29,606 nt of DNA from Anaerolineales bacterium (GTDB lineage Bacteria > Chloroflexota > Anaerolineae > Anaerolineales > Villigracilaceae): positions 1-29,606 of the forward strand of contig JBBRWF010000001.1 in NCBI GenBank assembly GCA_038249405.1, written 5' to 3'. The position numbers and the translations under genes were made by a program. Below the pieces are notes generated by a model. That model worked only from the letters and a program-made list of their open reading frames with translations, had not been told where the DNA came from and made no database searches. Positions within the stretch are counted from its first letter, which is position 1. Each line of letters opens with the position of its first letter. Positions 2,844-20,674 of the stretch are shown here, piece after piece.

Positions 2844-4112
2844 TTATTTCCCATCCGCTTTTACGACAGCGGCGAAATCCTCAGGGAAACGTTCCAGCGC
2901 CGAGGTAACGGCCATCGTAGAAAAATCGCCCAGGGCGCACAGACACTTCCCATTAACCTGCGTGGCGACATTTTTGAGAAGTTGCAAGTCTGCGTTTGTT
3001 CCCTGGCCGTGGTGAATGCGGTCTATGATATGCAGCATCCAGTAATTGCCGTCACGGCAAGGGGTGCATTTACCGCAGGATTCGTGTTTGAAGAAATGCA
3101 CGGTCTTGTCGATGACCCAATCCATGCTGTGAGTGTCATCGATCACGATCACTGAGGCAGAACCCAGGAGAGAGCCGACACTTTGAACGTTTTCATAGTC
3201 CATGGGCGTATCCATGACTTTATCAAAGGTGCTGTCATCGACACGAATAATGGATGATGACGCGCCGGCGGGCATGATGGCTCTGAGCTTGCGCCCATCC
3301 GGAATACCGCCGCCATGCGTATAAAGCAACTCGCGGAAGGTGGTTCCGAGGGGAAGTTCATAATTGCCGGGTTTGTTGACGTTACCAGAAAGCGAGAAAA
3401 TCTTGATGCCCGCGCTTTTCTCGGTACCCAGCGATTTATACCAACCGGCGCCTTTTTCAATGATAAAAGGCAGGTTGGTGAGGGTTTCAACATTGTTAAT
3501 CACTGTGGGCTTGCTGTACAGACCAACGAGCGCCGGGAAAGGCGGGCGCACACGCGGCTGCCCGCGTTTGCCTTCGATGGACTCAAGCAGGGCAGTTTCT
3601 TCACCGCAGATGTAGGCGCCAGCACCCAGGTGAGTCTTGAGGCGCAGCGAGTAGCTGCTGCCAAAAAGATTATCACCCAACGCACCGGCCTTTTCCATTT
3701 GCAGGATGCAGTCATCCAGAAAGAGTTGGACTTGCTGGAACTCGCCGCGCAAGTAAACATAGCCTTCCTGAGCGCCTACGGCGTAACAGGCAATGGCGAC
3801 CCCTTCGAGGAATTGGAAGGGATTGCTTTCCATGATCTCACGATCTTTGAAAGTACCTGGCTCGGATTCGTCGGCGTTGCAGACCACATAGTGCGGCCAG
3901 ATGTTGTTGGGCAGGAATGACCACTTGACACCGGTGGGGAAACCCGCACCACCGCGCCCACGCAGCCCGGAAGCCTTGACCTCATCCACAACCTGTTGGG
4001 GCTGCATGGATGTAACGACCTTCTTGAAGTTCTCAAAACCGCCATTTTTCTTATAAACTTCGATATTGTTGATATCTGGAATATCGCGATGCCGCAAAAT
4101 GAAGTGAGACAT
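2844..4112 (-). CDS. nuoF: NADH-quinone oxidoreductase subunit F
   Basis: GLRGRGGAGFPTG, NADESEPGTFKDR, GAGAYICGEETALLESIEG and CGKCTPC...C motifs. Confidence 0.97.
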   Translation of the reverse strand: MSHFILRHRDIPDINNIEVYKKNGGFENFKKVVTSMQPQQVVDEVKASGLRGRGGAGFPTGVKWSFLPNNIWPHYVVCNADESEPGTFKDREIMESNPFQFLEGVAIACYAVGAQEGYVYLRGEFQQVQLFLDDCILQMEKAGALGDNLFGSSYSLRLKTHLGAGAYICGEETALLESIEGKRGQPRVRPPFPALVGLYSKPTVINNVETLTNLPFIIEKGAGWYKSLGTEKSAGIKIFSLSGNVNKPGNYELPLGTTFRELLYTHGGGIPDGRKLRAIMPAGASSSIIRVDDSTFDKVMDTPMDYENVQSVGSLLGSASVIVIDDTHSMDWVIDKTVHFFKHESCGKCTPCRDGNYWMLHIIDRIHHGQGTNADLQLLKNVATQVNGKCLCALGDFSTMAVTSALERFPEDFAAVVKADGK

Positions 4113-4618
4113 TATTTCATCTCCTTGGCGTGCCCGGAAACCCTGAGAGCTTCAACGAGTTCCATTGTGCGGTCAACGGTCATATTTTCGTAATAGGTGA
4201 CCTTATCGCCATCCTGCAACTGGAACATGGGAGCTTTATCGCAGGCTGCCAGGCACATGACGGCTTCCACGGTTACCATGCCATCGGGCGTGGTCTCGCC
4301 GACTTTGACACCCAGGTTCTGGCAAAGAGCATCTAGAAATTTATCGGCACCACGTAAAGCACAGGGCAGATCGTTGCAAACCTGCATGCGATATTTGCCA
4401 GCTTTTTCGTCATGATAGAGGGTGTAAAAACCGACGATCGAGGCTACTTCGGTCACATCCAGATCGAGCATACGGGCAATTTCTGCCATGCTTTCCTTGG
4501 TGATATAACCGCCTTCGCGCTGAGCCAGATACAGCAACGGCATGACTGCCGAGCGTTTGACAGGGTATTTGGCGAAAATCGCCTTTACTTCTTGTGGATA
4601 CATATCGGCGAGACTCAT
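4112..4618 (-). CDS. nuoE: NADH-quinone oxidoreductase subunit E
   Basis: VASIVGFYTLY, CNDLPC and CLAAC 2Fe-2S motifs; overlaps nuoD and nuoF at both ends. Confidence 0.96.
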   Translation of the reverse strand: MSLADMYPQEVKAIFAKYPVKRSAVMPLLYLAQREGGYITKESMAEIARMLDLDVTEVASIVGFYTLYHDEKAGKYRMQVCNDLPCALRGADKFLDALCQNLGVKVGETTPDGMVTVEAVMCLAACDKAPMFQLQDGDKVTYYENMTVDRTMELVEALRVSGHAKEMK

Positions 4619-5844
4619 CGGTCAATATCTCCCAAAACAATGTCAACAGAGCCAATGATTGCCACAAGATCGGCAACCAGAAAACCCTTTGCAAGGACAG
4701 GTAAAACCTGAAGATTATCAAATGATGGAGTGCGGAAGTGGATACGCATAGGCTTGGGACCGCCATCGCTTTCAATAAAGACACCCAATTCACCTCGCGG
4801 CGATTCAACCGCAGTGTAAATAGCGCCGCGCGGGGCGTTAAAGCCTTCGGTCCAGAGTTTGAAGTGGTGGATGAGGGCTTCCATGCTGGTAGCAATCATG
4901 GAACGAGGCGGGGGGACAAATTTATAATTATTTGAACGCACGGGACCCATGGGGAGCTTATCCATGGCCTGCTGGACAATGCGCACAGACTGGCGCATTT
5001 CTTCTATACGCACCAGGTAGCGCGCTTGTACGTCGCCTTCGGAGCGCAGCGGAACATCAAAATCGTATTGCTCGTAACCCGAATAAGGGGCAAATTTGCG
5101 AAGATCGTAGTTGACACCCGAACCACGCAGCGTGGCACCGGTGAGACCCCAGTTGACGGCATCTTTGGCGGAAATGACACCGATGCCTACTGTGCGGTCA
5201 ATAAACAGTGGGTTTTTGGTCAACAAGGATTCGTATTCGTCAATGCGCTTGGTGATGATCTTAAGGAAGTTACGAACAGCCGCTTCGAACTCGACCGGAA
5301 CATCACGCCAAACACCGCCAGGGCGGATGTAGGTGGTCATCATGCGCTGCCCGGAAACCAGTTCGAGGATATCCAGGATTATCTCGCGATCACGGAAGCA
5401 ATACATAAAGTTTGACATGGCCGCCAGGTCAAGCGCGGAAGTGCCAAGCCAGACCATGTGAGAGGAGATACGCTTGAGTTCTGCCAAAATAACACGCAGA
5501 GCCTGGGCGCGCACGGGAACATCCAGCCCTACCAGCTTTTCAACAGCCAGACAGTAGGCCAGGTTGTTGCCAACCGTGTTCATGTAGTCCAGGCGGTCGG
5601 TCATGACTTCGGCCTTCTGGTAGGTCTTGGCTTCCATGTTCTTTTCGATACCGGTATGCAGGAAACCAATATCAGGGATGGCATTGAGCACGGTTTCGCC
5701 ATCCAGTTCAAGCAGTAAACGCAGCACACCGTGCGTGGATGGGTGCTGGGGACCCATGTTAAGCAGCATCGTCTCGCCCTGTAAGGCGCGATCGGATACG
5801 AGGTGTGTCATACCATCAAGAGTGACTTCTTCTATCTGGGCCAT
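4615..5844 (-). CDS. nuoD: NADH-quinone oxidoreductase subunit D
   Basis: LNMGPQHPSTHGVLRL, IGFLHTGIEK, DRLDY, ESPRGELG and C-terminal GDIDR. Confidence 0.97.
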   Translation of the reverse strand: MAQIEEVTLDGMTHLVSDRALQGETMLLNMGPQHPSTHGVLRLLLELDGETVLNAIPDIGFLHTGIEKNMEAKTYQKAEVMTDRLDYMNTVGNNLAYCLAVEKLVGLDVPVRAQALRVILAELKRISSHMVWLGTSALDLAAMSNFMYCFRDREIILDILELVSGQRMMTTYIRPGGVWRDVPVEFEAAVRNFLKIITKRIDEYESLLTKNPLFIDRTVGIGVISAKDAVNWGLTGATLRGSGVNYDLRKFAPYSGYEQYDFDVPLRSEGDVQARYLVRIEEMRQSVRIVQQAMDKLPMGPVRSNNYKFVPPPRSMIATSMEALIHHFKLWTEGFNAPRGAIYTAVESPRGELGVFIESDGGPKPMRIHFRTPSFDNLQVLPVLAKGFLVADLVAIIGSVDIVLGDIDR

Positions 5845-12575: not shown

Positions 12576-13247
12576 TTATTCCCGTTGTTTTTGCCCAAAA
12601 TTGCAAACAGAAAGGAGCGGGCAGGCGTTACAAAGCGGTTTGCGGGCATGGCAGATTTCACGTCCGAGGCGAATGATGTTCAGATGTGCGGCATAGTATG
12701 AGGTTGGAGGGAAAATGCCTTCGAGATAGGGATGGGCAGCTTCCACAGAGATATTTTCGGGGCGCAGTCCGATACGACCGGTTACGCGGTAAACATGCGT
12801 ATCGACCGGGAAGGCGGGACGACCAAGCGAAAAACAAAGGACAATCGCGGCAGTTTTTGGACCGACCCCGTTAAATTTTGTTAACCAGGCGCGGGCTTCT
12901 TCCAAGGGCAAGCTGCTGAGGAAAGATAAATCCAGCCCGCCGCGCTCCAGGGTGATCTGACGTAACACCTGCTGAATACGCGGGCCTTTCTGGTTGGCCA
13001 GCCCTGCCACGCGAATACAGGCGATTACATCTGATTCTGGCGCATCGCGAACAGCTTCCCAGGTGGAGTAACTGGCCTGTAAGGCGTTAAATGCCTTATC
13101 ACGATTAACATCGTTCGTATTTTGAGAAAGGATGGTGGACACCAGTTCATCCACTGGAGGCAGCGGGTTACGCCAAATGGGTTCGCCGTAAAATGCGAGC
13201 AAAGTCTGGTGTATCAGAACGGCGCGATCACCCGGTGAACCCATCAT
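12576..13247 (-). CDS. nth: Endonuclease III family HhH-GPD DNA glycosylase
   Basis: ILSQNTND, GVGPKTA (catalytic Lys), FPVDTHVYRV (catalytic Asp) and 4Fe-4S motif CHARKPLCNACPLLSVC. TAATG overlap with the upstream gene. Confidence 0.88.
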   Translation of the reverse strand: MMGSPGDRAVLIHQTLLAFYGEPIWRNPLPPVDELVSTILSQNTNDVNRDKAFNALQASYSTWEAVRDAPESDVIACIRVAGLANQKGPRIQQVLRQITLERGGLDLSFLSSLPLEEARAWLTKFNGVGPKTAAIVLCFSLGRPAFPVDTHVYRVTGRIGLRPENISVEAAHPYLEGIFPPTSYYAAHLNIIRLGREICHARKPLCNACPLLSVCNFGQKQRE

Positions 13248-14290
13248 TATTGTTTGAGTACGAAGGTCGGGCGACTGACACCAATTTTGAGATTGCGATA
13301 ATTTTGCAGTTGAATTTCTGGCCCAAAGCTGGAGAGTTGTGCAAGTTGCGTACTGTCGAGCGCGCCGAGTGCCTGCAAAATTGCCAGCGCCACGGCAGTT
13401 CGGGCGCGGTCGTGTGAATCTCCATCACTGATCTTTATGGCAATTCCAATTCCCGGCGAACCAGCGCCCAGAGCACCTGGCATCAGGCCGATACTTTGAA
13501 AGCCTTCGGCGCCGCCCTTGACCAGGATGGCACCTTTCCCGGCAGTCATCAGCACGGTATCAAAACGTTCAGGGCCTCCGACCATGTCTGGATGACTCAT
13601 CATGGCTGAGGTGATTGTCCGACAGGCAGCAGTGCGTTCAGGGGATAATTCGTAGGGGTCGCAAAGCCGGGCATAGCCGTAGGCGGCATTGTAAAGCGGG
13701 ACAGCAAAGTTTGGAGCGGAACAACCGTCAATACCAAGCTCAACACTTTCGGCTGGTATGACGCACATCTCGGAAAAAGCCTGCAAAATGCTTTCTTGAA
13801 TGGGGTGATGAAAATCGAGATAGTTTTCAAGAGGTTTGGAGCGAAGTTTGGCATGCGCAAGCATGCCGGTATGCTTGCCCGAGCAGTTGTGGCGATACTG
13901 TGTGGGCAGTTCGCCGCGCACTTTCATAGCGTCGGCAGTGGGCTCGTGGATAGGATAATGCGTACCGCACAAAAGATCACTGGCGCTGACACCAATTTTG
14001 GCCTGCATGCCTTTGACCGTCTCAACATGCTCATCTGTGCCGGAATGTGATGAACACATCAATGATATTTCGCGGCTGGTCAGGCCGAATTTTTCGTGCC
14101 CACCGCGCTCAATAAATGGCAAAGCCTGGAATGGTTTTGCGCTGGAGCGCAGAAAAGTGACCAGGTTCGGATCACCCAGAGATGCCAGCAATTTGCCATG
14201 CGAATCGACAACGGCGGCGGCACCAAAGTGAAGCGATTCAACAATATTCCCACGGGTTAATTCAAAAACTGGCTGGTAAGAGTCTGTCAC
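13247..14290 (-). CDS. L-asparaginase II (Rhizobium etli AnsA type)
   Basis: RSSAKPFQA, CSSHSG, NCSGKH, DGCSAP and KGGAEG motifs are all intact. GTG start at 14290 has GAGGA upstream; the ORF track starts at 14305. Confidence 0.88.
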   Translation of the reverse strand: MTDSYQPVFELTRGNIVESLHFGAAAVVDSHGKLLASLGDPNLVTFLRSSAKPFQALPFIERGGHEKFGLTSREISLMCSSHSGTDEHVETVKGMQAKIGVSASDLLCGTHYPIHEPTADAMKVRGELPTQYRHNCSGKHTGMLAHAKLRSKPLENYLDFHHPIQESILQAFSEMCVIPAESVELGIDGCSAPNFAVPLYNAAYGYARLCDPYELSPERTAACRTITSAMMSHPDMVGGPERFDTVLMTAGKGAILVKGGAEGFQSIGLMPGALGAGSPGIGIAIKISDGDSHDRARTAVALAILQALGALDSTQLAQLSSFGPEIQLQNYRNLKIGVSRPTFVLKQ

Positions 14291-14291
14291 T

Positions 14292-15152
14292 TTATTCCTC
14301 ATCATTTTCAGAAGCGCCGGATGATCGATAATGCCGGATGAAGTAGTGCCTTAAACCATAGGCAAGCCGCTGATGATATTGTTTTTGCCTGTCAGCCGAA
14401 GCATTGAAGGAAGCGGATAATATGGGCATAAGGGTTTCGACCGCATCTGGGCTGCTGGAACTTTTTGCCAAAGCATCGAGTTTTTGATTAAGCCTACTGA
14501 GCATTTCGAGCTGGTCTTCAGCAACCTCAGTTGAAACCACCGCGCTGCGTCCACTGACAATTGTATAGTCGTGATAATCAGCGATGAGGTGATCGAGCGA
14601 TTTTATCCAGTCGACCAAATTCGCACTTGCTAAAAATGGAGGTTGATTCTTTACCACAAGATCGCCAACGAAGATAATTTTTGGCTCGGGTAGAATTACC
14701 CAGCAAGCACCGTGTGCGGGGCCGGGATGGTGTTCCAGTACAACCGAAAAATTACTCCATTCAATTGACATGCGCGAGGTGAAGGAGATTTCGGGAGGAG
14801 CCCATCGAACGCTCCCCAGGCCTGCGACTGATTCCCAGTCGGCGCCGGTTTCATCGCCCTGGGCTTTGAATGTGTTGGGGCGATTGCGAAATGTTTCCGC
14901 AGTTTTTTCGTGACCCACGATTGTACAGTCCATAGCGCGAGCACCCAATGTGCGGTCTGGGTGCCCGTCCAGATTTATCAATAAACGTTCCACACCTGTG
15001 TTTAGACTGAGTAACTCGGCGCGCCAGGAACGGCCATCTTCGGGAGAGGGCGGCGCATCGATCTGGATCAGCCCATGAGGTAATGCGATGGCCCCCAATG
15101 TAACACCAGGAAACTGGTCTTCGATATAAACTTGACTGGCGAGTGCCTGCAT
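14292..15152 (-). CDS. Metallo-beta-lactamase-fold protein with degenerate metal-binding motifs
   Basis: Layout matches the cyclase-like MBL fold (QIDAP, LINLDGHPDRTLG, VGHEKT, HPGPAHG, FVGDL, IVSGR), but HxHxDH reads DGHPDR. AAGGAG RBS. Confidence 0.78.
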   Translation of the reverse strand: MQALASQVYIEDQFPGVTLGAIALPHGLIQIDAPPSPEDGRSWRAELLSLNTGVERLLINLDGHPDRTLGARAMDCTIVGHEKTAETFRNRPNTFKAQGDETGADWESVAGLGSVRWAPPEISFTSRMSIEWSNFSVVLEHHPGPAHGACWVILPEPKIIFVGDLVVKNQPPFLASANLVDWIKSLDHLIADYHDYTIVSGRSAVVSTEVAEDQLEMLSRLNQKLDALAKSSSSPDAVETLMPILSASFNASADRQKQYHQRLAYGLRHYFIRHYRSSGASENDEE

Positions 15153-15222: not shown

Positions 15223-17280
15223 TTATTTTGCGAATGGTAACGTAAATTTAAATTTCGAGCCGTGTTCGGGGGCAGGCTCCACCCAAATTTTCCCGCCGTG
15301 ACCCTGCACGGCAAGCTTGCAAAAAGCCAGCCCAACCCCGAGACCACTGGCAGCTGTTTTGTTCTTGAGACGGGTAAATTTATCAAAAATCCGTTCACCG
15401 TCCGCCTCGGGGATTCCTGGGCCATTATCTTGAACAGAAATGCGTAAAAAATCGCCACTTTCCTCTGCAGCGACCACTATCATGCCACCCATTGGGGTGT
15501 ATTTGGCTGCATTTTCCAGTAGATTAATCAATACGCGCCTGATCATATCGACATCTATGGACACAGGCGGAAGACCTTCGGTCATATTAACAACAATGGT
15601 CTGTTCGCGACCATCCGCGGAGGGTTTGATCGCTTCGAGAGCATAACTGAACAGCTTGGAGACTTCCACTTGCTCACGCTCACCCACTGGCTGGTTTTGC
15701 TCAAGGCGATTGAGATCCAGCAAGGAACTGACAAGGCGTTGGATACGATCAATCGAGTGGTGCGCAATCGTCAAAATTGGTTCGGCGGCTTCTTTTTCAG
15801 ATTCGGGGAAGACAGCTCCGAGCATTTCCACACTAGACAGAATATTTGCGAGCGGCGAGCGTAAATCGTGATAAATCATGGCCGCCAAGTCTTCACGCAA
15901 AGCATCCAGATCTTTGCGCTCGGTGATATCACGCAAAATCCACTGGAGCGATTCGGCTTCATCGAACACCACTTTCCGAACATATACTTCGACTGGATGC
16001 GTGCCCCCATGAACATCATACAAGGTTGCTTCGTATGTGATAGTAGAGTCACCGATTTTTTCCAATTGGCGACCGGCTTTTTCATGATTTACTTCATGTA
16101 CTTGCTCAATACCAATCTCGCGTAGGTCAACCGAAGTATGTCCGGTGAAGAAAGTAGCCTGGTTATTGACTTCCAGGATGCGCCCTTGCAAATCGGTAAT
16201 AACAATAGGGTCGATACTGTCTTCAAACAGGTCGCGATAACGTTTACGCGCTACATCGAGGCTTTCAAACAATTGCGCATTTTGAATGGTGGTACCAGCG
16301 AGCGCGCCAAAACCTGTTAGAACCAACAAAGCATCTGGATCAAAAGATTTATTATTAACAGGGTTGATGGCTTCCAATACGCCAATAACTTTACCCTGTA
16401 CGTGGATGGGGGCACAGACGAGTGCGCGCACCTTTACATCTGCAATTCTTTCTGATTCAGATAGAATTGGCTGGGTATCAGAGGCCAGCGAGGGAATAAT
16501 GATGCCTCGTTCCTGCCGAACAACCACTCCGGCAATTCCTTCCCGAAGTTTCAGGCGCCTGCCAACCAGGCTTTGATTTCCATTGGCTGCGCGGAAAACG
16601 AGTTCCTGTCCTTCGACCATTGCAAGGGCTGTGATTTCCACTTGCAGGGTTTGCCTGGTGAGCGTCAATATGTTTTCAAACAAATCGTCGATGCGCACAA
16701 ATGAGCTTAAACGAGCTGCGCCTTCGGCAAGAGCAGTCATGACACGCGCCTGACGCTGGCTTTCGGAGAACAGACGGGCGTTCAGCACAGCAATACCCGC
16801 CTGGTCTGCAATAGCCTGCATCAGTTCGAGATGGTCATTTGTATAGGCGTTTGGAGTTGGGTGAACCAGGGTGAGAACACCAACGAGATTCTCGCGCGTC
16901 ATGAGCGGCACACAAATAGCCGATTTCGCTCCAGAGCGATTGACCGAATCATCCTCCCGGCGCAACCAGCGCTCATCTTTGCTGGTATCGGGAACCAGGG
17001 TGGCTTTGCGGCTGCGAATCACCCAGCCTGCCAGGCCGCGATCTACAGTATCTTTTAATTGCAGGGTTGTACTTTCACGCACCTGGTTACCATAAACGAT
17101 TGCAGAATTAACCGCCCGGCCATTATCATCCATGACCACCACGCTGCCGCGTTCTCCACCCACGTTGTTGATGGCGGAAAATAAAACGCGAGTGAGCACA
17201 GTTTTTAGATCGAGCGCTGTGGCAAATTCCCGGCTCACTTTGTAGAGCAGTTCGAGGACTGCACGTTGGTTTTGGGGCAT
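15223..17280 (-). CDS. Cytoplasmic sensor histidine kinase, GAF-GAF-PAS-HisKA-HATPase
   Basis: Two GAF ends (AIADQAGIAVLNARLF, GALAGTTIQNAQLF), PAS (LFEDSIDPIVITDLQGRILEVN...WILRDITERK), H-box HDLRSPL, N-box NLLENAAKYT, DNGPGI and GLGVGLAFC. No transmembrane segment. Start taken at MPQNQ with GAGG upstream. Confidence 0.93.
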   Translation of the reverse strand: MPQNQRAVLELLYKVSREFATALDLKTVLTRVLFSAINNVGGERGSVVVMDDNGRAVNSAIVYGNQVRESTTLQLKDTVDRGLAGWVIRSRKATLVPDTSKDERWLRREDDSVNRSGAKSAICVPLMTRENLVGVLTLVHPTPNAYTNDHLELMQAIADQAGIAVLNARLFSESQRQARVMTALAEGAARLSSFVRIDDLFENILTLTRQTLQVEITALAMVEGQELVFRAANGNQSLVGRRLKLREGIAGVVVRQERGIIIPSLASDTQPILSESERIADVKVRALVCAPIHVQGKVIGVLEAINPVNNKSFDPDALLVLTGFGALAGTTIQNAQLFESLDVARKRYRDLFEDSIDPIVITDLQGRILEVNNQATFFTGHTSVDLREIGIEQVHEVNHEKAGRQLEKIGDSTITYEATLYDVHGGTHPVEVYVRKVVFDEAESLQWILRDITERKDLDALREDLAAMIYHDLRSPLANILSSVEMLGAVFPESEKEAAEPILTIAHHSIDRIQRLVSSLLDLNRLEQNQPVGEREQVEVSKLFSYALEAIKPSADGREQTIVVNMTEGLPPVSIDVDMIRRVLINLLENAAKYTPMGGMIVVAAEESGDFLRISVQDNGPGIPEADGERIFDKFTRLKNKTAASGLGVGLAFCKLAVQGHGGKIWVEPAPEHGSKFKFTLPFAK

Positions 17281-17336: not shown

Positions 17337-18509
17337 TTACTGCGATAAATAGTTCAAACCCGATGCAGGGTTCACTATAACCACACACTCATCGTTGTTT
17401 ATCCAACCAGATCTCACTAATTGCTGTAGAGCAGCCAGGCCAGCACCAACCTGGGGAGCTGCAAAAATTCCCTCGCAAAGCGCCAGCTCTTTTTGATAGG
17501 CCAGAATTTTCTGATCCGCTACAGCTACTACTGTGCCCATACTTTCACGAATGGCTCGCAATATCAGACGATCAGCGAAGACATCGGCTATTCGTAAGGC
17601 AGAAATGACAGTCTCAACATGCTGCCAACGAGATGCACGTGCGCTTTTTTCATCAAAGGCACGCGCAAGCGGGGCACAACCACTGGCCTGGGCCGCCACC
17701 AAACGGGGCCGTTTTGCTCCGAGCAAGCCCAACTGCTCCAATTCGCCAAATGTTTTCCACAATCCCAAAAGCTCCAGGCCGTCGCCAGTGGGTAAAATAA
17801 TCACATCCGGCAATTCCCAGGCAAACGCTTCCGCCAGCTCAAGGCCGATGGTTTTAGCGCCTTCGCAACGATAAGGTTCTCGAAAAGCCGAGATATCCAA
17901 CCATCCGCGAGAACTGGCAACTTCGGCAGCCATACAGGCGGCATCCGAAAACAAGCCATCCACCAGAATCAGCTGTGCGCCAAAGGTTTTAACCGCAACT
18001 TGCTCCGCAACAGGCGCATCTTTGGACATAAAAATATGCGCACGGGAGCGAGAACGGGCAGCGCAGGCTGCCAGCGCGGGGCCATCCGATCCGTAGGCAG
18101 CCAGGGTAAAATCACGCACGCCTAATTCAAGAGCGCGTGCCACGGCCACTGTCAGGCCGCGATGCTCAAGGGAGCCTAATGGACCGTGAGACTCATCCTT
18201 TATAAATAGTGCGGGCAAACCCAGCGCTTTCCCCAGGTTGAAAGCCTGTAAAACAGGCGCGTTTGCTTCGCCCAGGGTCATTCGGAATGATGGTGTACGG
18301 ACAGGCAGGATTTCGCTCCAGCGCCAAATACCTCCCTGACGTTGCGACAGAGACTCACGCGTAAGTGTTGACTTTGCCACGGGTATATCATAAATCGCCA
18401 TCAGAGGGCTGGAACAATCCAAACAAAAGGTTTGCAAAGTATCCGGAGTAAAAAACCTGCCGCATTCAGGGCATTCAAGCCGCAAGAACGCACTCTGGGA
18501 TGGCCGCAT
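17337..18509 (-). CDS. Threonine synthase-like (fold-type II PLP family) protein lacking the PLP lysine
   Basis: ThrC layout (CPECG..CLDC zinc knuckle, GIWRWSEILP, TLGEANAP, LFIKDE, EPYRCEGAKTIGLELAE, AQASGCAPL), but GSFKxRG reads GSLEHRG. Start taken at MRPSQ. Confidence 0.85.
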   Translation of the reverse strand: MRPSQSAFLRLECPECGRFFTPDTLQTFCLDCSSPLMAIYDIPVAKSTLTRESLSQRQGGIWRWSEILPVRTPSFRMTLGEANAPVLQAFNLGKALGLPALFIKDESHGPLGSLEHRGLTVAVARALELGVRDFTLAAYGSDGPALAACAARSRSRAHIFMSKDAPVAEQVAVKTFGAQLILVDGLFSDAACMAAEVASSRGWLDISAFREPYRCEGAKTIGLELAEAFAWELPDVIILPTGDGLELLGLWKTFGELEQLGLLGAKRPRLVAAQASGCAPLARAFDEKSARASRWQHVETVISALRIADVFADRLILRAIRESMGTVVAVADQKILAYQKELALCEGIFAAPQVGAGLAALQQLVRSGWINNDECVVIVNPASGLNYLSQ

Positions 18510-18516
18510 AGGACAA

Positions 18517-18525
18517 AGTATAGCA
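18517..18525 (-). promoter_or_regulatory. Extended -10 element 7 nt before the ThrC-like ATG (probable leaderless mRNA)
   Basis: Minus strand reads TGcTATACT-ttgtcct-ATG, with no Shine-Dalgarno sequence. Confidence 0.6.
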
Positions 18526-18577
18526 CAATTGGTATATTTCCCAATAAAAACAACAAGTGCGTGTATCATTTTGTTTC

Positions 18578-18624: not shown

Positions 18625-19308
18625 ATGTCATTAGACCTTTCGCGGATCCAGGCCCTGTGTTTTGATGTTGACGGCACGCTGAACGATACAGATGATCAGT
18701 TTGTAGAACAGGCGCTGCCATTCTTCAAAGCCGTCCGTTTTTCGCTGCCTGGAAGGGATGCTTACTGCGCAGCACGGCATTTTGTCATGTGGGCTGAAGC
18801 TCCAGGCAATGCGCTGATCGGCTTGCCAGACAGGTTTGGGTTTGACGATGAATTGAGTAAACTGGCAATCTGGCTGAACCAGAAACGCAAAGCGAAAATC
18901 AAGGTGTTTCGCCCCATTGACGGTGTTGTTGAATTGCTGGATGAGCTGCACGGCAAATACCCATTGGCTGTGGTGAGCGCAAGAGAAGAAGAATCCACCC
19001 GGGAATTTCTGCACCAGGCAGAAATTGAGAAATATTTTACATGCGTGGCCGGGGCATTAACGGTAAAACATACCAAACCATACCCGGACCCGATCTATTG
19101 GGCTGCACAACAAATGGGAGTGCAGGCCAAAAATTGCCTGATGATTTGTGATACAACAATAGATATTCGCGCCGGGAAAGCAGCTGCAACGTAAACTGTG
19201 GGGGTATTATGCGGTTTTGGGGAAGAAAAAGAACTTCGCCGACTGGGTGCTGTTTTGATATTGGAGAGTACTCCCCTGCTGACCGGTGAATTATTGCGGA
19301 ACCTATAA
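18625..19308 (+). pseudogene. HAD-family hydrolase (phosphoglycolate phosphatase-like) with internal TAA at 19192-19194
   Basis: Motifs FDVDGTL, VVSAR and KPYPDP. After the TAA the same frame continues TVGVLCGFGEEKELRRLGAVLILESTP to a TAA at 19306-19308, which is a typical HAD C-terminus. Confidence 0.8.
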
Positions 19309-19567: not shown

Positions 19568-20674
19568 TCAGCAAAAAAAACGTGTGAGAGAACTGAAGTC
19601 GTACTGGGCCGCATACGATTCGCCATAGCGCATCAGCAGACGCACTGCTGTTGGCGAAGTAAAAATGCCAGTTATATTGAATTCTTCTATGATCTTCCAA
19701 AGCGTACCGGGATCCGGGCAATCAATCGCACCTTCATAGACGACGGTGGTGCAACCCATAATGAGCGGCGCGTAAACAATATAACTATGACCAACGAGCC
19801 AACCGATGTCGGAAGTGGACCACCAAATATCGGTTGGCTGCAGGCCAAAGACCCAGCGCGCCATGCTTGAAATCCAGACCTGGTAGGCGCCGTGTGTATG
19901 AACAGCCAGCTTAGGCCTGGCGGTTGTCCCTGAATTGGCGATCATAAAGGCTGGTTCGTTGGCTTCCATCGGGATATAGCCGCCAGGCTGTCCTTTGCCA
20001 TGGACCAAAAACTCATCCCAGGTCAGATCGCGCTCTGCCTGCATGGGTACATCCGCTGTGCCACGTTTAAGAACCACCACATGCTCAACCGAATGCCCGC
20101 CGCCTTCCAGGGCAGTATCTACAATCTCTTTTAGCGGAACATCCTTGCCCTTACGGTAGGTAAAATCTCCAATGAAGAGCGCTCTGGAACCACTGGCCCG
20201 AACACGATCCCCGAGCGCCCCGGCTCCAAAACCAGCAAAGACAACCGAATGAATGGCGCCGATCCTGACAGAAGCCAGCATGACTATGCTGGCTTCGGGA
20301 CAGGTGGGCATGTAAATGGTGAGCCGATCTCCCTTTTGCAACCCCATGCCTCGCAGCGCGGCAGAGACACGCTCCACCTCGTGCAAGAGTTGAGCATACG
20401 TAAACAGGCGGTGTTCTCAGCGCTCGGTGACATAGATAAGCGCTGTGTGACCGCCCCAGCCGCGCTGCACATGAAAATCGAGGGCATTGTAAGCCAGGTT
20501 GGTTTCGCCCCCCTGGAACCAGCGGAAGGTGGGAAAATCCCATTCAAAAACTCTCTCCCAGGGGCGGAACAGATGCAATTGCGCGGCTGCTTTGGCCTAA
20601 AACTGTTCAGGGTTCTCACGGGATTCCTCGAGCCAGCGATTCACTAGCGGGTTAACGAGATCGACGCCAGACAT
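19568..20674 (-). pseudogene. acs: Acetyl-CoA synthetase-like gene, with two internal stops and the 3' end missing
   Basis: From ATG 20674 (RBS AAAGGAGGAG): MSGVDLVNP...NPEQF*AKAA...RWFQGGETNLAYNALD...TER*EHRLFTYAQL...GAIHSVVFAGF...SGTTARPK...WSTSDIGWLVGHSYIVYAPL...TSPTAVRLL. Stops are TAG 20597-20599 and TGA 20417-20419. Homology ends at about 19570. Confidence 0.88.

Follow-up and report, generated by a model that had tools for sequence, protein, structure and literature searches.

Zinc-ribbon threonine synthases (NF006050/PRK08197; represented by 2zsj, 2d1f, 6cgq/6nmx, 1uim, and 2c2b) are the closest described relatives of the gene considered here, a threonine synthase-like (ThrC-like) gene located on 29,606 nucleotides (nt) of an Anaerolineales genome of the family Villigracilaceae (GCA_038249405.1, contig JBBRWF010000001.1, positions 1 to 29,606 of the forward strand; below, this whole stretch is called the window). 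The window protein is similar to these enzymes in fold, length, ribbon, and genomic slot, but it lacks the Schiff-base lysine, the asparagine loop, the phosphate loop, and the TG-GLK motif, and it evolves several times faster. Without the defining lysine and phosphate-loop features, the protein should not be classed as a working threonine synthase. Instead, it belongs to a clade of related proteins in which the site for pyridoxal 5'-phosphate (PLP) has been replaced, and both the existence and the retention of this dead clade are well supported.

Similar to the window protein, fusions of ThrC with PadR (P0262, P0266, and P0282) have a ThrC fold without the catalytic lysine and are apparently retained for sensing or regulation. 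These fusions, however, comprise about 490 amino acids (aa), end in a PadR winged helix-turn-helix domain, keep the GN motif and a glycine-rich loop, and form a separate clade, whereas the window protein has 390 aa, carries no DNA-binding domain, and has its phosphate cup destroyed, which sets it apart from the PadR fusions. O-acetylserine sulfhydrylase (CysK) is a fold-type II PLP enzyme that makes regulatory contacts with CysE, CymR, and CdiA-CT beside its catalytic role. We know of no kinase partner of CysK; the enzyme keeps both PLP and activity, and its likeness to the window protein would lie in the proposed mechanism only. Enzyme folds kept under selection after catalysis was lost or re-purposed are also found in Arabidopsis PDX1.2, cited in PMC6522883 as a pseudoenzyme acting on PDX1, and in the MocR/GabR/PdxR regulators. 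PDX1 is a TIM barrel and MocR belongs to fold type I, and, unlike the window protein, these systems have known partners or DNA-binding domains. A further report (PMC12172450) describes a catalytic second activity of ThrC and not a dead enzyme, and our literature search for a bacterial ThrC pseudoenzyme, a Lys-less fold-type II protein, or a link between ThrC and a kinase returned nothing relevant.

Replacement of the PLP site in a clade of ThrC-like proteins

The gene and its diagnostic elements are located as follows:

17337-18509, minus strand: Lys-less ThrC-like gene (P0001), an uninterrupted open reading frame (ORF) of 390 aa plus stop
18414-18473, minus strand: N-terminal zinc ribbon, C13-P-E-C16 ... 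C29-L-D-C32, with the CxxC pairs kept in Lys-less and canonical members
18165-18167, minus strand: GAG codon for Glu115 at the Schiff-base lysine position (GSLEHRG for GSFK(A/D)RG), aligning with the Lys of 2zsj, 2d1f, and 6cgq
18084-18089, minus strand: Ser141-Asp142, replacing Asn-Ala of the (S/T)xGN loop (AAYGSDGP in place of PTAGNAGG)
17769-17792, minus strand: former PLP-phosphate loop PTGDGLEL, residues 240-247, for PTGGGTGL (family alignment)
17352-17372, minus strand: late motif NPASGLN, residues 380-386, for NTGSGLK (family alignment)

The ThrC-like ORF runs from an ATG at 18509-18507 to a TAA at 17339-17337 and contains no internal stop codon. PALP is the only Pfam match of its product (190.9 bits); the NCBIfam model NF006050 (PRK08197, zinc-ribbon threonine synthase) is matched with 424 bits at a cut-off of 303, and TIGR00260 with 128 bits, which is under its cut-off of 167. 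The top Foldseek matches of an AlphaFold2 (AF2) model (predicted local distance difference test, pLDDT, 94.2; predicted template modeling score, pTM, 0.92) are ThrC structures, namely 2c2b (template modeling score, TM, 0.90), 6nmx (TM 0.77), 6cgq, 2d1f, and 2zsj, and together with the PALP match they assign the protein to the fold-type II PLP-enzyme fold. The zinc-ribbon N-terminus is encoded 5' of mis-called starts in two related loci (L054 and L065), and the starts chosen by gene callers for P0152, P0018, and P0002 remove the ribbon. A sequencing or assembly artefact was rejected, given that contigs assembled from two public runs of separate studies (freshwater, 2017; sediment, 2024), either of which may be the source assembly, agree in every letter of the gene, and that the new motifs are common to its relatives.

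These motifs were compared through HMMER alignments to the solved ThrC structures 2zsj, 2d1f, and 6cgq and to 135 canonical family members. At the Schiff-base column, which lies in G-S-F-K-x-R-G of threonine synthases, the Lys-less clade reads E/D/D/H/D/E, compared to K in 97% of the canonical proteins. Ser141 and Asp142 are invariant across all six Lys-less clusters, at positions where canonical proteins carry N (98%) and A (97%). Within the phosphate loop, Asp243 and Glu246 are each present in five of the six members and Leu245 in all of them. The canonical residues of the phosphate and Asn loops are conserved in 96-100% of the family; the window protein reads PTGDGLE and AYGSD at these loops. 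The late motif has an invariant Asn386 in the clade, compared to K in 99% of canonical proteins, and Thr381 is changed to P, S, or G. In register with the solved enzymes, AYGSDG falls on STGNTS, TGDGLE on VGNAGN, and PASGL on TGNGL.

A preliminary description, prepared from the window sequence, had called the gene an intact 390-aa ORF with threonine synthase architecture and a retained CxxC...CxxC zinc knuckle. The stop-free frame, the PALP and NF006050 matches, and the fold agree with the former, and the conservation of the ribbon across Lys-less and canonical proteins agrees with the latter. The comparison with ThrC structures and the AlphaFold model that it recommended returned a ThrC fold and placed the motifs on 2zsj, 2d1f, and 6cgq; these alignments put Glu exactly where it had been read, in GSLEHRG with its GAG codon at 18165-18167. 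Its readings of the phosphate loop as PTGDGLE (canonical PTGGGTGL) and of the late motif as PASGLN (canonical TGSGLK) hold as well. For the SxGN motif, which it had read as YGSD, the loss stands but the register was off by one: TAGN aligns with AYGS, the Asn corresponds to Ser141, and Asp142 is the next residue.

An unbiased column test established that the replacement of the PLP site is systematic and not diffuse. The canonical proteins have 151 columns with a conservation of 95% or more, and 115 of these (76%) are kept in at least five of the six Lys-less proteins. Twenty-two near-invariant columns are altered in at least five of the six, including 109, 115-116, 141-142, 208/210, 243-250, 353, 381, and 386, and most of them lie in or adjoin the motifs for PLP and substrate. 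On the substrate side, R117, R214, E216, and K219 are kept in the Lys-less proteins. From these changes we infer that the window protein has lost PLP binding and threonine synthesis.

The same loss is seen in five further metagenomic clusters (P0003, P0004, P0005, P0018, and P0040), which are 61-70% identical to the window protein and for which GSL[DEH]xRG, GSDG, GDGLEL, and SGLN are the common motifs. Together with the window cluster (P0001/2), they make up a clade of six 90%-identity clusters; about 110 of the 120 best matches in the database search were canonical. In a maximum-likelihood (ML) tree, the six clusters are monophyletic (Shimodaira-Hasegawa-like approximate likelihood-ratio test, SH-aLRT, 100; stem 0.51) and nested within canonical sequences, and S141, D142, L245, and N386 are invariant in all six. 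The basal member, P0005, is intermediate in state, with a His in place of the Lys and a phosphate loop that still reads GSGLGL, which argues that the acidic loop residues arose second. A profile search built on the six Lys-less proteins yielded zero additional clade members, and an exhaustive search of representatives, in which the clade and its canonical neighbors merged into one 50% cluster (P0032), returned nothing further on the clade while turning up other Lys-less clusters. The preliminary description had considered that close orthologs might all carry the canonical Lys and glycine-rich loop; this is excluded by the five clusters sharing the loss and the new motifs, and the alignments indicate a real pseudoenzyme clade, not a lone decaying copy.

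A single small lineage of the Anaerolineae has thus replaced all four elements of the site: the Schiff-base Lys, the Asn holding PLP O3', the Gly/Thr phosphate cup, and the late TG-GLK motif. Asp142, Asp243, Glu246, and Glu/Asp115, together with Leu245, may occupy the vacated phosphate cup and close it off at the N-terminal end of helix 245-259, and the filled cup could stabilize a cofactor-free fold. Alternatively, E115, D142, D243, and E246 might form a remodeled pocket that binds a metal or cationic ligand, or PLP non-covalently, and serves new chemistry or a kinase-independent sensor. The conservation of the acidic replacements in five to six of the six members and the retention of the substrate-side residues would be in line with such a pocket. 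However, a phosphate cup with two carboxylates and without its Thr argues against PLP, the GN motif and a glycine-rich loop are intact in the ThrC-PadR forms, and basal P0005 is without D243 and E246, which makes these residues dispensable for the conserved function. We therefore regard a remodeled pocket as rather improbable.

Orthology, expression, and selection

The ThrC-like gene is embedded in the following arrangement, in which the coding regions were assigned by Pfam and the promoter by consensus scan:

18625-19194, plus strand: divergent HAD-family hydrolase gene (HAD_2, 94 bits), with an in-frame TAA at 19192-19194
18514-18544, minus strand: sigma-70-like promoter, with a -35-like TTGGGA at 18544-18539 and an extended -10 TGcTATACT at 18525-17
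15223-17280, minus strand: GAF-GAF-PAS-HisKA-HATPase histidine kinase, with its ATG at 17280, 56 nt past the ThrC-like stop
14292-15152, minus strand: MBL-fold protein
13247-14305, minus strand: asparaginase II
12576-13247, minus strand: HhH-GPD protein

On the minus strand, the order is therefore ThrC-like gene, kinase, MBL-fold protein, asparaginase II, and HhH-GPD, with the HAD gene divergent upstream, and the Lys-less relatives also keep this operon layout. The kinase follows ThrC in the Lys-less loci L054 and L055 and equally in the canonical loci L056, L059-L061, and L066-L076, and the order of the MBL-fold, asparaginase II, and HhH-GPD genes is common to L056, L059-L061, L063, and L065. 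Canonical, Lys-bearing orthologs in this conserved slot are 55-60% identical to the window protein; they are found in a Chloroflexi metagenome-assembled genome (MAG; L056), in three other genera of the family (L059-L061), and in eleven more species (L066-L076), including eight congeners. In total, the adjacency of ThrC and kinase beside canonical orthologs is documented in at least 15 genomes or contigs. Given that canonical orthologs share the slot, the kinase adjacency is older than the loss of the lysine, and the window gene is the positional ortholog of a catalytic, Lys-bearing ThrC paralog. The possibility of an extra duplicated copy was rejected, since synteny puts the window gene in the orthologous slot.

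The same genome contains a housekeeping thrC (contig C60; TIGR00260, 305.6 bits) and three more Lys-bearing ThrC-like genes. A second NF006050-type copy was not found in this MAG, which is 86.7% complete. Its relatives carry four to five ThrC-like paralogs per genome in the family. On contig C478 (L005:1228-2883, plus strand), a ThrC-like PALP protein that keeps its lysine (SFKDR) is joined to a C-terminal receiver domain (PF00072, 85 bits) in an ORF that extends off the contig end; similar-scoring open frames of 556-596 aa in five genomes of the family suggest that this PALP-receiver fusion is conserved. From such architectures, ThrC-fold proteins seem to be wired to two-component signaling in the family.

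The extended -10 element ends 7 nt upstream of the ThrC-like ATG, an arrangement of the leaderless type, and the mRNA that starts the operon is probably leaderless. The block CCAnnTGTGCTATACTTT-N4-TATG is invariant in the window, in the Lys-less loci L054, L055, and L058, and in the canonical locus L056, that is, unchanged in five loci in spite of saturation at the silent sites of their coding DNA. Such conservation argues that transcription has been maintained, and it lends support to the promoter that the preliminary description had assigned to the gene. CCAnnTGTGCTATACTTT is also present upstream of the dead forms of L062 and L065, and L063 carries TGCTATACT.

The codon analyses covered four Lys-less genes, with the DNA of P0004, P0005, and P0038 left aside. 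Pairwise Nei-Gojobori dN/dS within the Lys-less clade was 0.09-0.18, with dS near saturation, and the ML codon estimate of dN/dS (omega) was 0.179, compared to 0.05-0.09 in canonical sets; one canonical codon set (c_K_d) was dropped as saturated (tree length 35.7, omega 0.014). A likelihood-ratio test rejected omega=1 for the Lys-less clade (2dlnL = 371.7). Simulated neutral evolution left no more than 2% of ORFs open at 0.1 substitutions per site, and the observed pairwise nucleotide distances are 0.30-0.35. Purifying selection has thus persisted after the loss of the PLP site. In these respects, the protein agrees with the broad concept of a pseudoenzyme: it is homologous to an enzyme family, its catalytic and cofactor residues are gone, and purifying selection followed the loss.

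With the adjacent kinase used as an internal clock, the Lys-less gene evolves about 2.5-6 times faster than its canonical orthologs. In the Lys-less genome pair with the best sampling (222 kinase codons), dN(ThrC) is about 6 times dN(kinase), and the ratio is 13 and 40 in two other Lys-less pairs, each resting on 85 codons only; in five of six canonical pairs it is 0.9-1.3, and it reaches 2.3 in one very close pair. Likewise, canonical congener pairs have a mean identity of 0.77 for ThrC and 0.72 for the kinase, and the window and the same congeners 0.59 for ThrC and 0.76 for the kinase. Private changes at near-invariant sites number 7-22 per Lys-less protein, with only one in basal P0005, compared to none or one in four of the five canonical proteins checked and six in P0038, which is atypical and Lys-bearing.

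Several claims of the preliminary description can be judged against these results. Its kinase is indeed encoded 56 nt downstream, with the ATG at 17280. The synteny with the kinase that it proposed to examine is conserved in gene order but not specific to the dead form, given that the kinase stands equally beside canonical ThrC. The dN/dS ratio for which it asked is 0.18 and not near 1, with omega=1 rejected. Its central reading of an intact ThrC fold with replaced PLP machinery and a retained non-catalytic role is supported by a clade that shares the loss and by the omega of 0.18.

Recurrent lysine loss

The window clade is not the only lineage in which the lysine is missing from this slot. 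P0042 (K to E; L062:5001-6170), P0148 (K to E; L063:189-1274), and P0152 (K to A; L065:~3920-5038) are separate Lys-less lineages in the slot with kinase, MBL-fold protein, and asparaginase II; P0042 is the sister of Lys-bearing P0038. In P0148 and P0152, about 28 and 16 residues, respectively, are deleted in frame, and P0040, a member of the window clade, has an in-frame deletion as well, for an overall range of about 16-28 residues. With the window clade and at least three other lineages counted, the lysine was lost independently at least four times in this operon.

A broader survey points in the same direction. Among the 149 nearest 50%-cluster representatives (P0147-P0295), 20 are without the lysine (E in eight; A, Q, R, and I in two each; M, S, H, and N in one each), and a FastTree phylogeny requires eight to ten independent changes to account for them. 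The survey used called ORFs only and a query profile that is itself Lys-less, and the Lys-less fraction of about one in seven may therefore be inflated. Three of the 20 are the PALP-PadR fusions introduced above, with a clade of their own. The survey also contains a deep Lys-less clade with seven members (P0177, P0199, P0196, P0243, P0283, P0248, and P0273).

Presumably, most Lys-less representatives are annotated as threonine synthase. Annotation pipelines assign this function to the window protein since it passes the NF006050 cut-off, and metabolic reconstructions would consequently count a dead enzyme. At about one in seven of the nearest representatives, with the possible inflation noted, such mis-annotation may be common. 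At the same time, the operon offers a natural experiment, in which close relatives differ in whether the slot is occupied by a catalytic or a dead version.

A proposed non-catalytic role and its alternatives

We propose that the dead ThrC descendant is kept for a non-catalytic activity that its ancestor already had, the likeliest being the binding of, or sensing for, the kinase; we see this reading as having about an even chance of being correct. Selection would preserve an activity that was already present in the catalytic ancestor within the operon, and the likeliest such activity would be binding to, or metabolite sensing for, the co-transcribed GAF-GAF-PAS kinase, which has no response regulator nearby. 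A role as kinase accessory or co-sensor is thus our leading guess. In complex prediction, the sensor region of the kinase (residues 1-461) and the ThrC-like protein gave a weak pass, with a median score of 0.49 (0.57, 0.46, and 0.49), compared to 0.00 for the best of three controls, with at least 75% of contacts agreeing between runs and a partner pLDDT of at least 88. In the calibration of this approach, 58 of 80 solved complexes passed, compared to two of 110 mismatched pairs; the passes at scores of 0.60 or under comprised only seven of the 80 solved complexes but both of the mismatches. From these models, we put the chance that the ThrC-like protein contacts the kinase at about one in three at most.

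Should the retained function prove to be linked with the orphan kinase, the gene would document a route from a metabolic enzyme to a signaling component and offer a handle on the input of a widespread GAF-GAF-PAS kinase.

Several observations weigh against a selected role beside the kinase. The complex score falls within a range in which the passes of the calibration are more often wrong than right, and the adjacency gives no specific support for a kinase role of the dead form, because it is ancestral and equally found beside catalytic orthologs. The N-terminal identity of the kinase revealed no informative pattern between Lys-less and canonical lineages. The loss of PLP binding is itself read from the motifs. 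Constraint on the Lys-less gene is clearly relaxed, and the residue in the lysine column differs among clade members (E/D/H), which argues that no new chemistry was fixed at this site. Of the 28 congeners sampled, 15, including several with a completeness of about 100%, gave no match for this ThrC paralog at 1e-80, and the paralog is thus dispensable at the genus level and seemingly lost often. In addition, the in-frame deletions of P0040, P0148, and P0152 look like a pattern of progressive erosion, the nonsense codon of the neighboring HAD gene (see below) indicates some local gene decay, and databases contain only called ORFs, so that broken copies would be under-sampled.

Many of these points would be expected if a redundant paralog were slowly eroding, with constraint only for a folded, non-toxic, translated first cistron that keeps the kinase operon expressed, and with no new function. 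The active site would then be lost first, in a family with four to five ThrC-like paralogs per genome, and the unmatched congeners, the repeated independent lysine losses, the in-frame deletions, the 2.5-6-fold raised rate, and the variable residues at the Lys site all fit this course; the leaderless first-gene position makes polar effects plausible. However, selection against stops alone predicts an omega near 1 for missense changes, whereas 0.18 was observed and omega=1 rejected. Moreover, 115 of the 151 family-conserved columns are still kept, and the replacements S141, D142, L245, and N386 do not vary among lineages whose silent sites are saturated. Slow erosion is disfavored by this omega and by the invariant replacement residues, and we hold it to be unlikely, if far from negligible.

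Another way in which the protein could be retained is as a non-catalytic subunit that heterodimerizes with, or regulates, an active ThrC-fold paralog, such as the ThrC-receiver fusion of contig C478. ThrC enzymes are dimers. The window protein retains the fold and 76% of the family-conserved columns, several Lys-bearing paralogs are present in the genome, including the PALP-Response_reg fusion, and the action of PDX1.2 on PDX1 (PMC6522883) provides a precedent. Against this stand the low phmmer scores of the own-genome paralogs (75-165 bits, compared to 863 for self) and the missing canonical NF006050-type copy, which leave no obvious interface, as well as the lack of synteny between the window gene and these paralogs. 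A heterodimeric arrangement therefore seems improbable.

Returning to the partnership with the kinase, a bolder version holds that the operon-heading ThrC paralog, even in its catalytic form, is a metabolite-reading co-sensor subunit of the kinase, and that the Lys-less lineages (the clade, P0042, P0148, and P0152) are separation-of-function variants keeping signaling only. We think it unlikely. Were it true, however, these enzyme-derived proteins would make up a new class of accessory sensors of histidine kinases and link aspartate-family amino-acid status to two-component signaling in Anaerolineae.

Further observations concern the neighboring genes. The frame of the divergent HAD gene continues past its TAA (TVGVLCGFGEEKELRRLGAV...) for about 37 more codons, to 19308, and HAD orthologs beside both Lys-less and canonical ThrC are intact, with 225-230 aa. 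The TAA is also present in the 31.9-kb contig of run X1 and in a piece from X3, and is therefore probably a genuine nonsense mutation. An ORF for an AMP-binding (acyl-CoA synthetase-like) protein is located between the HAD gene and rsmI, at 19568-20386 (minus strand). Its Pfam match is confined to positions 30-292 of 384, it is preceded upstream by overlapping ORFs that use other frames, and the arrangement resembles a truncated or frameshifted remnant. The MBL-fold protein reads LDGHPDR at its HxHxDH metal motif. This HPDR variant is kept in four orthologs beside canonical ThrC (L056 and L059-L061), which argues that it is a feature of the family and not specific to this genome.

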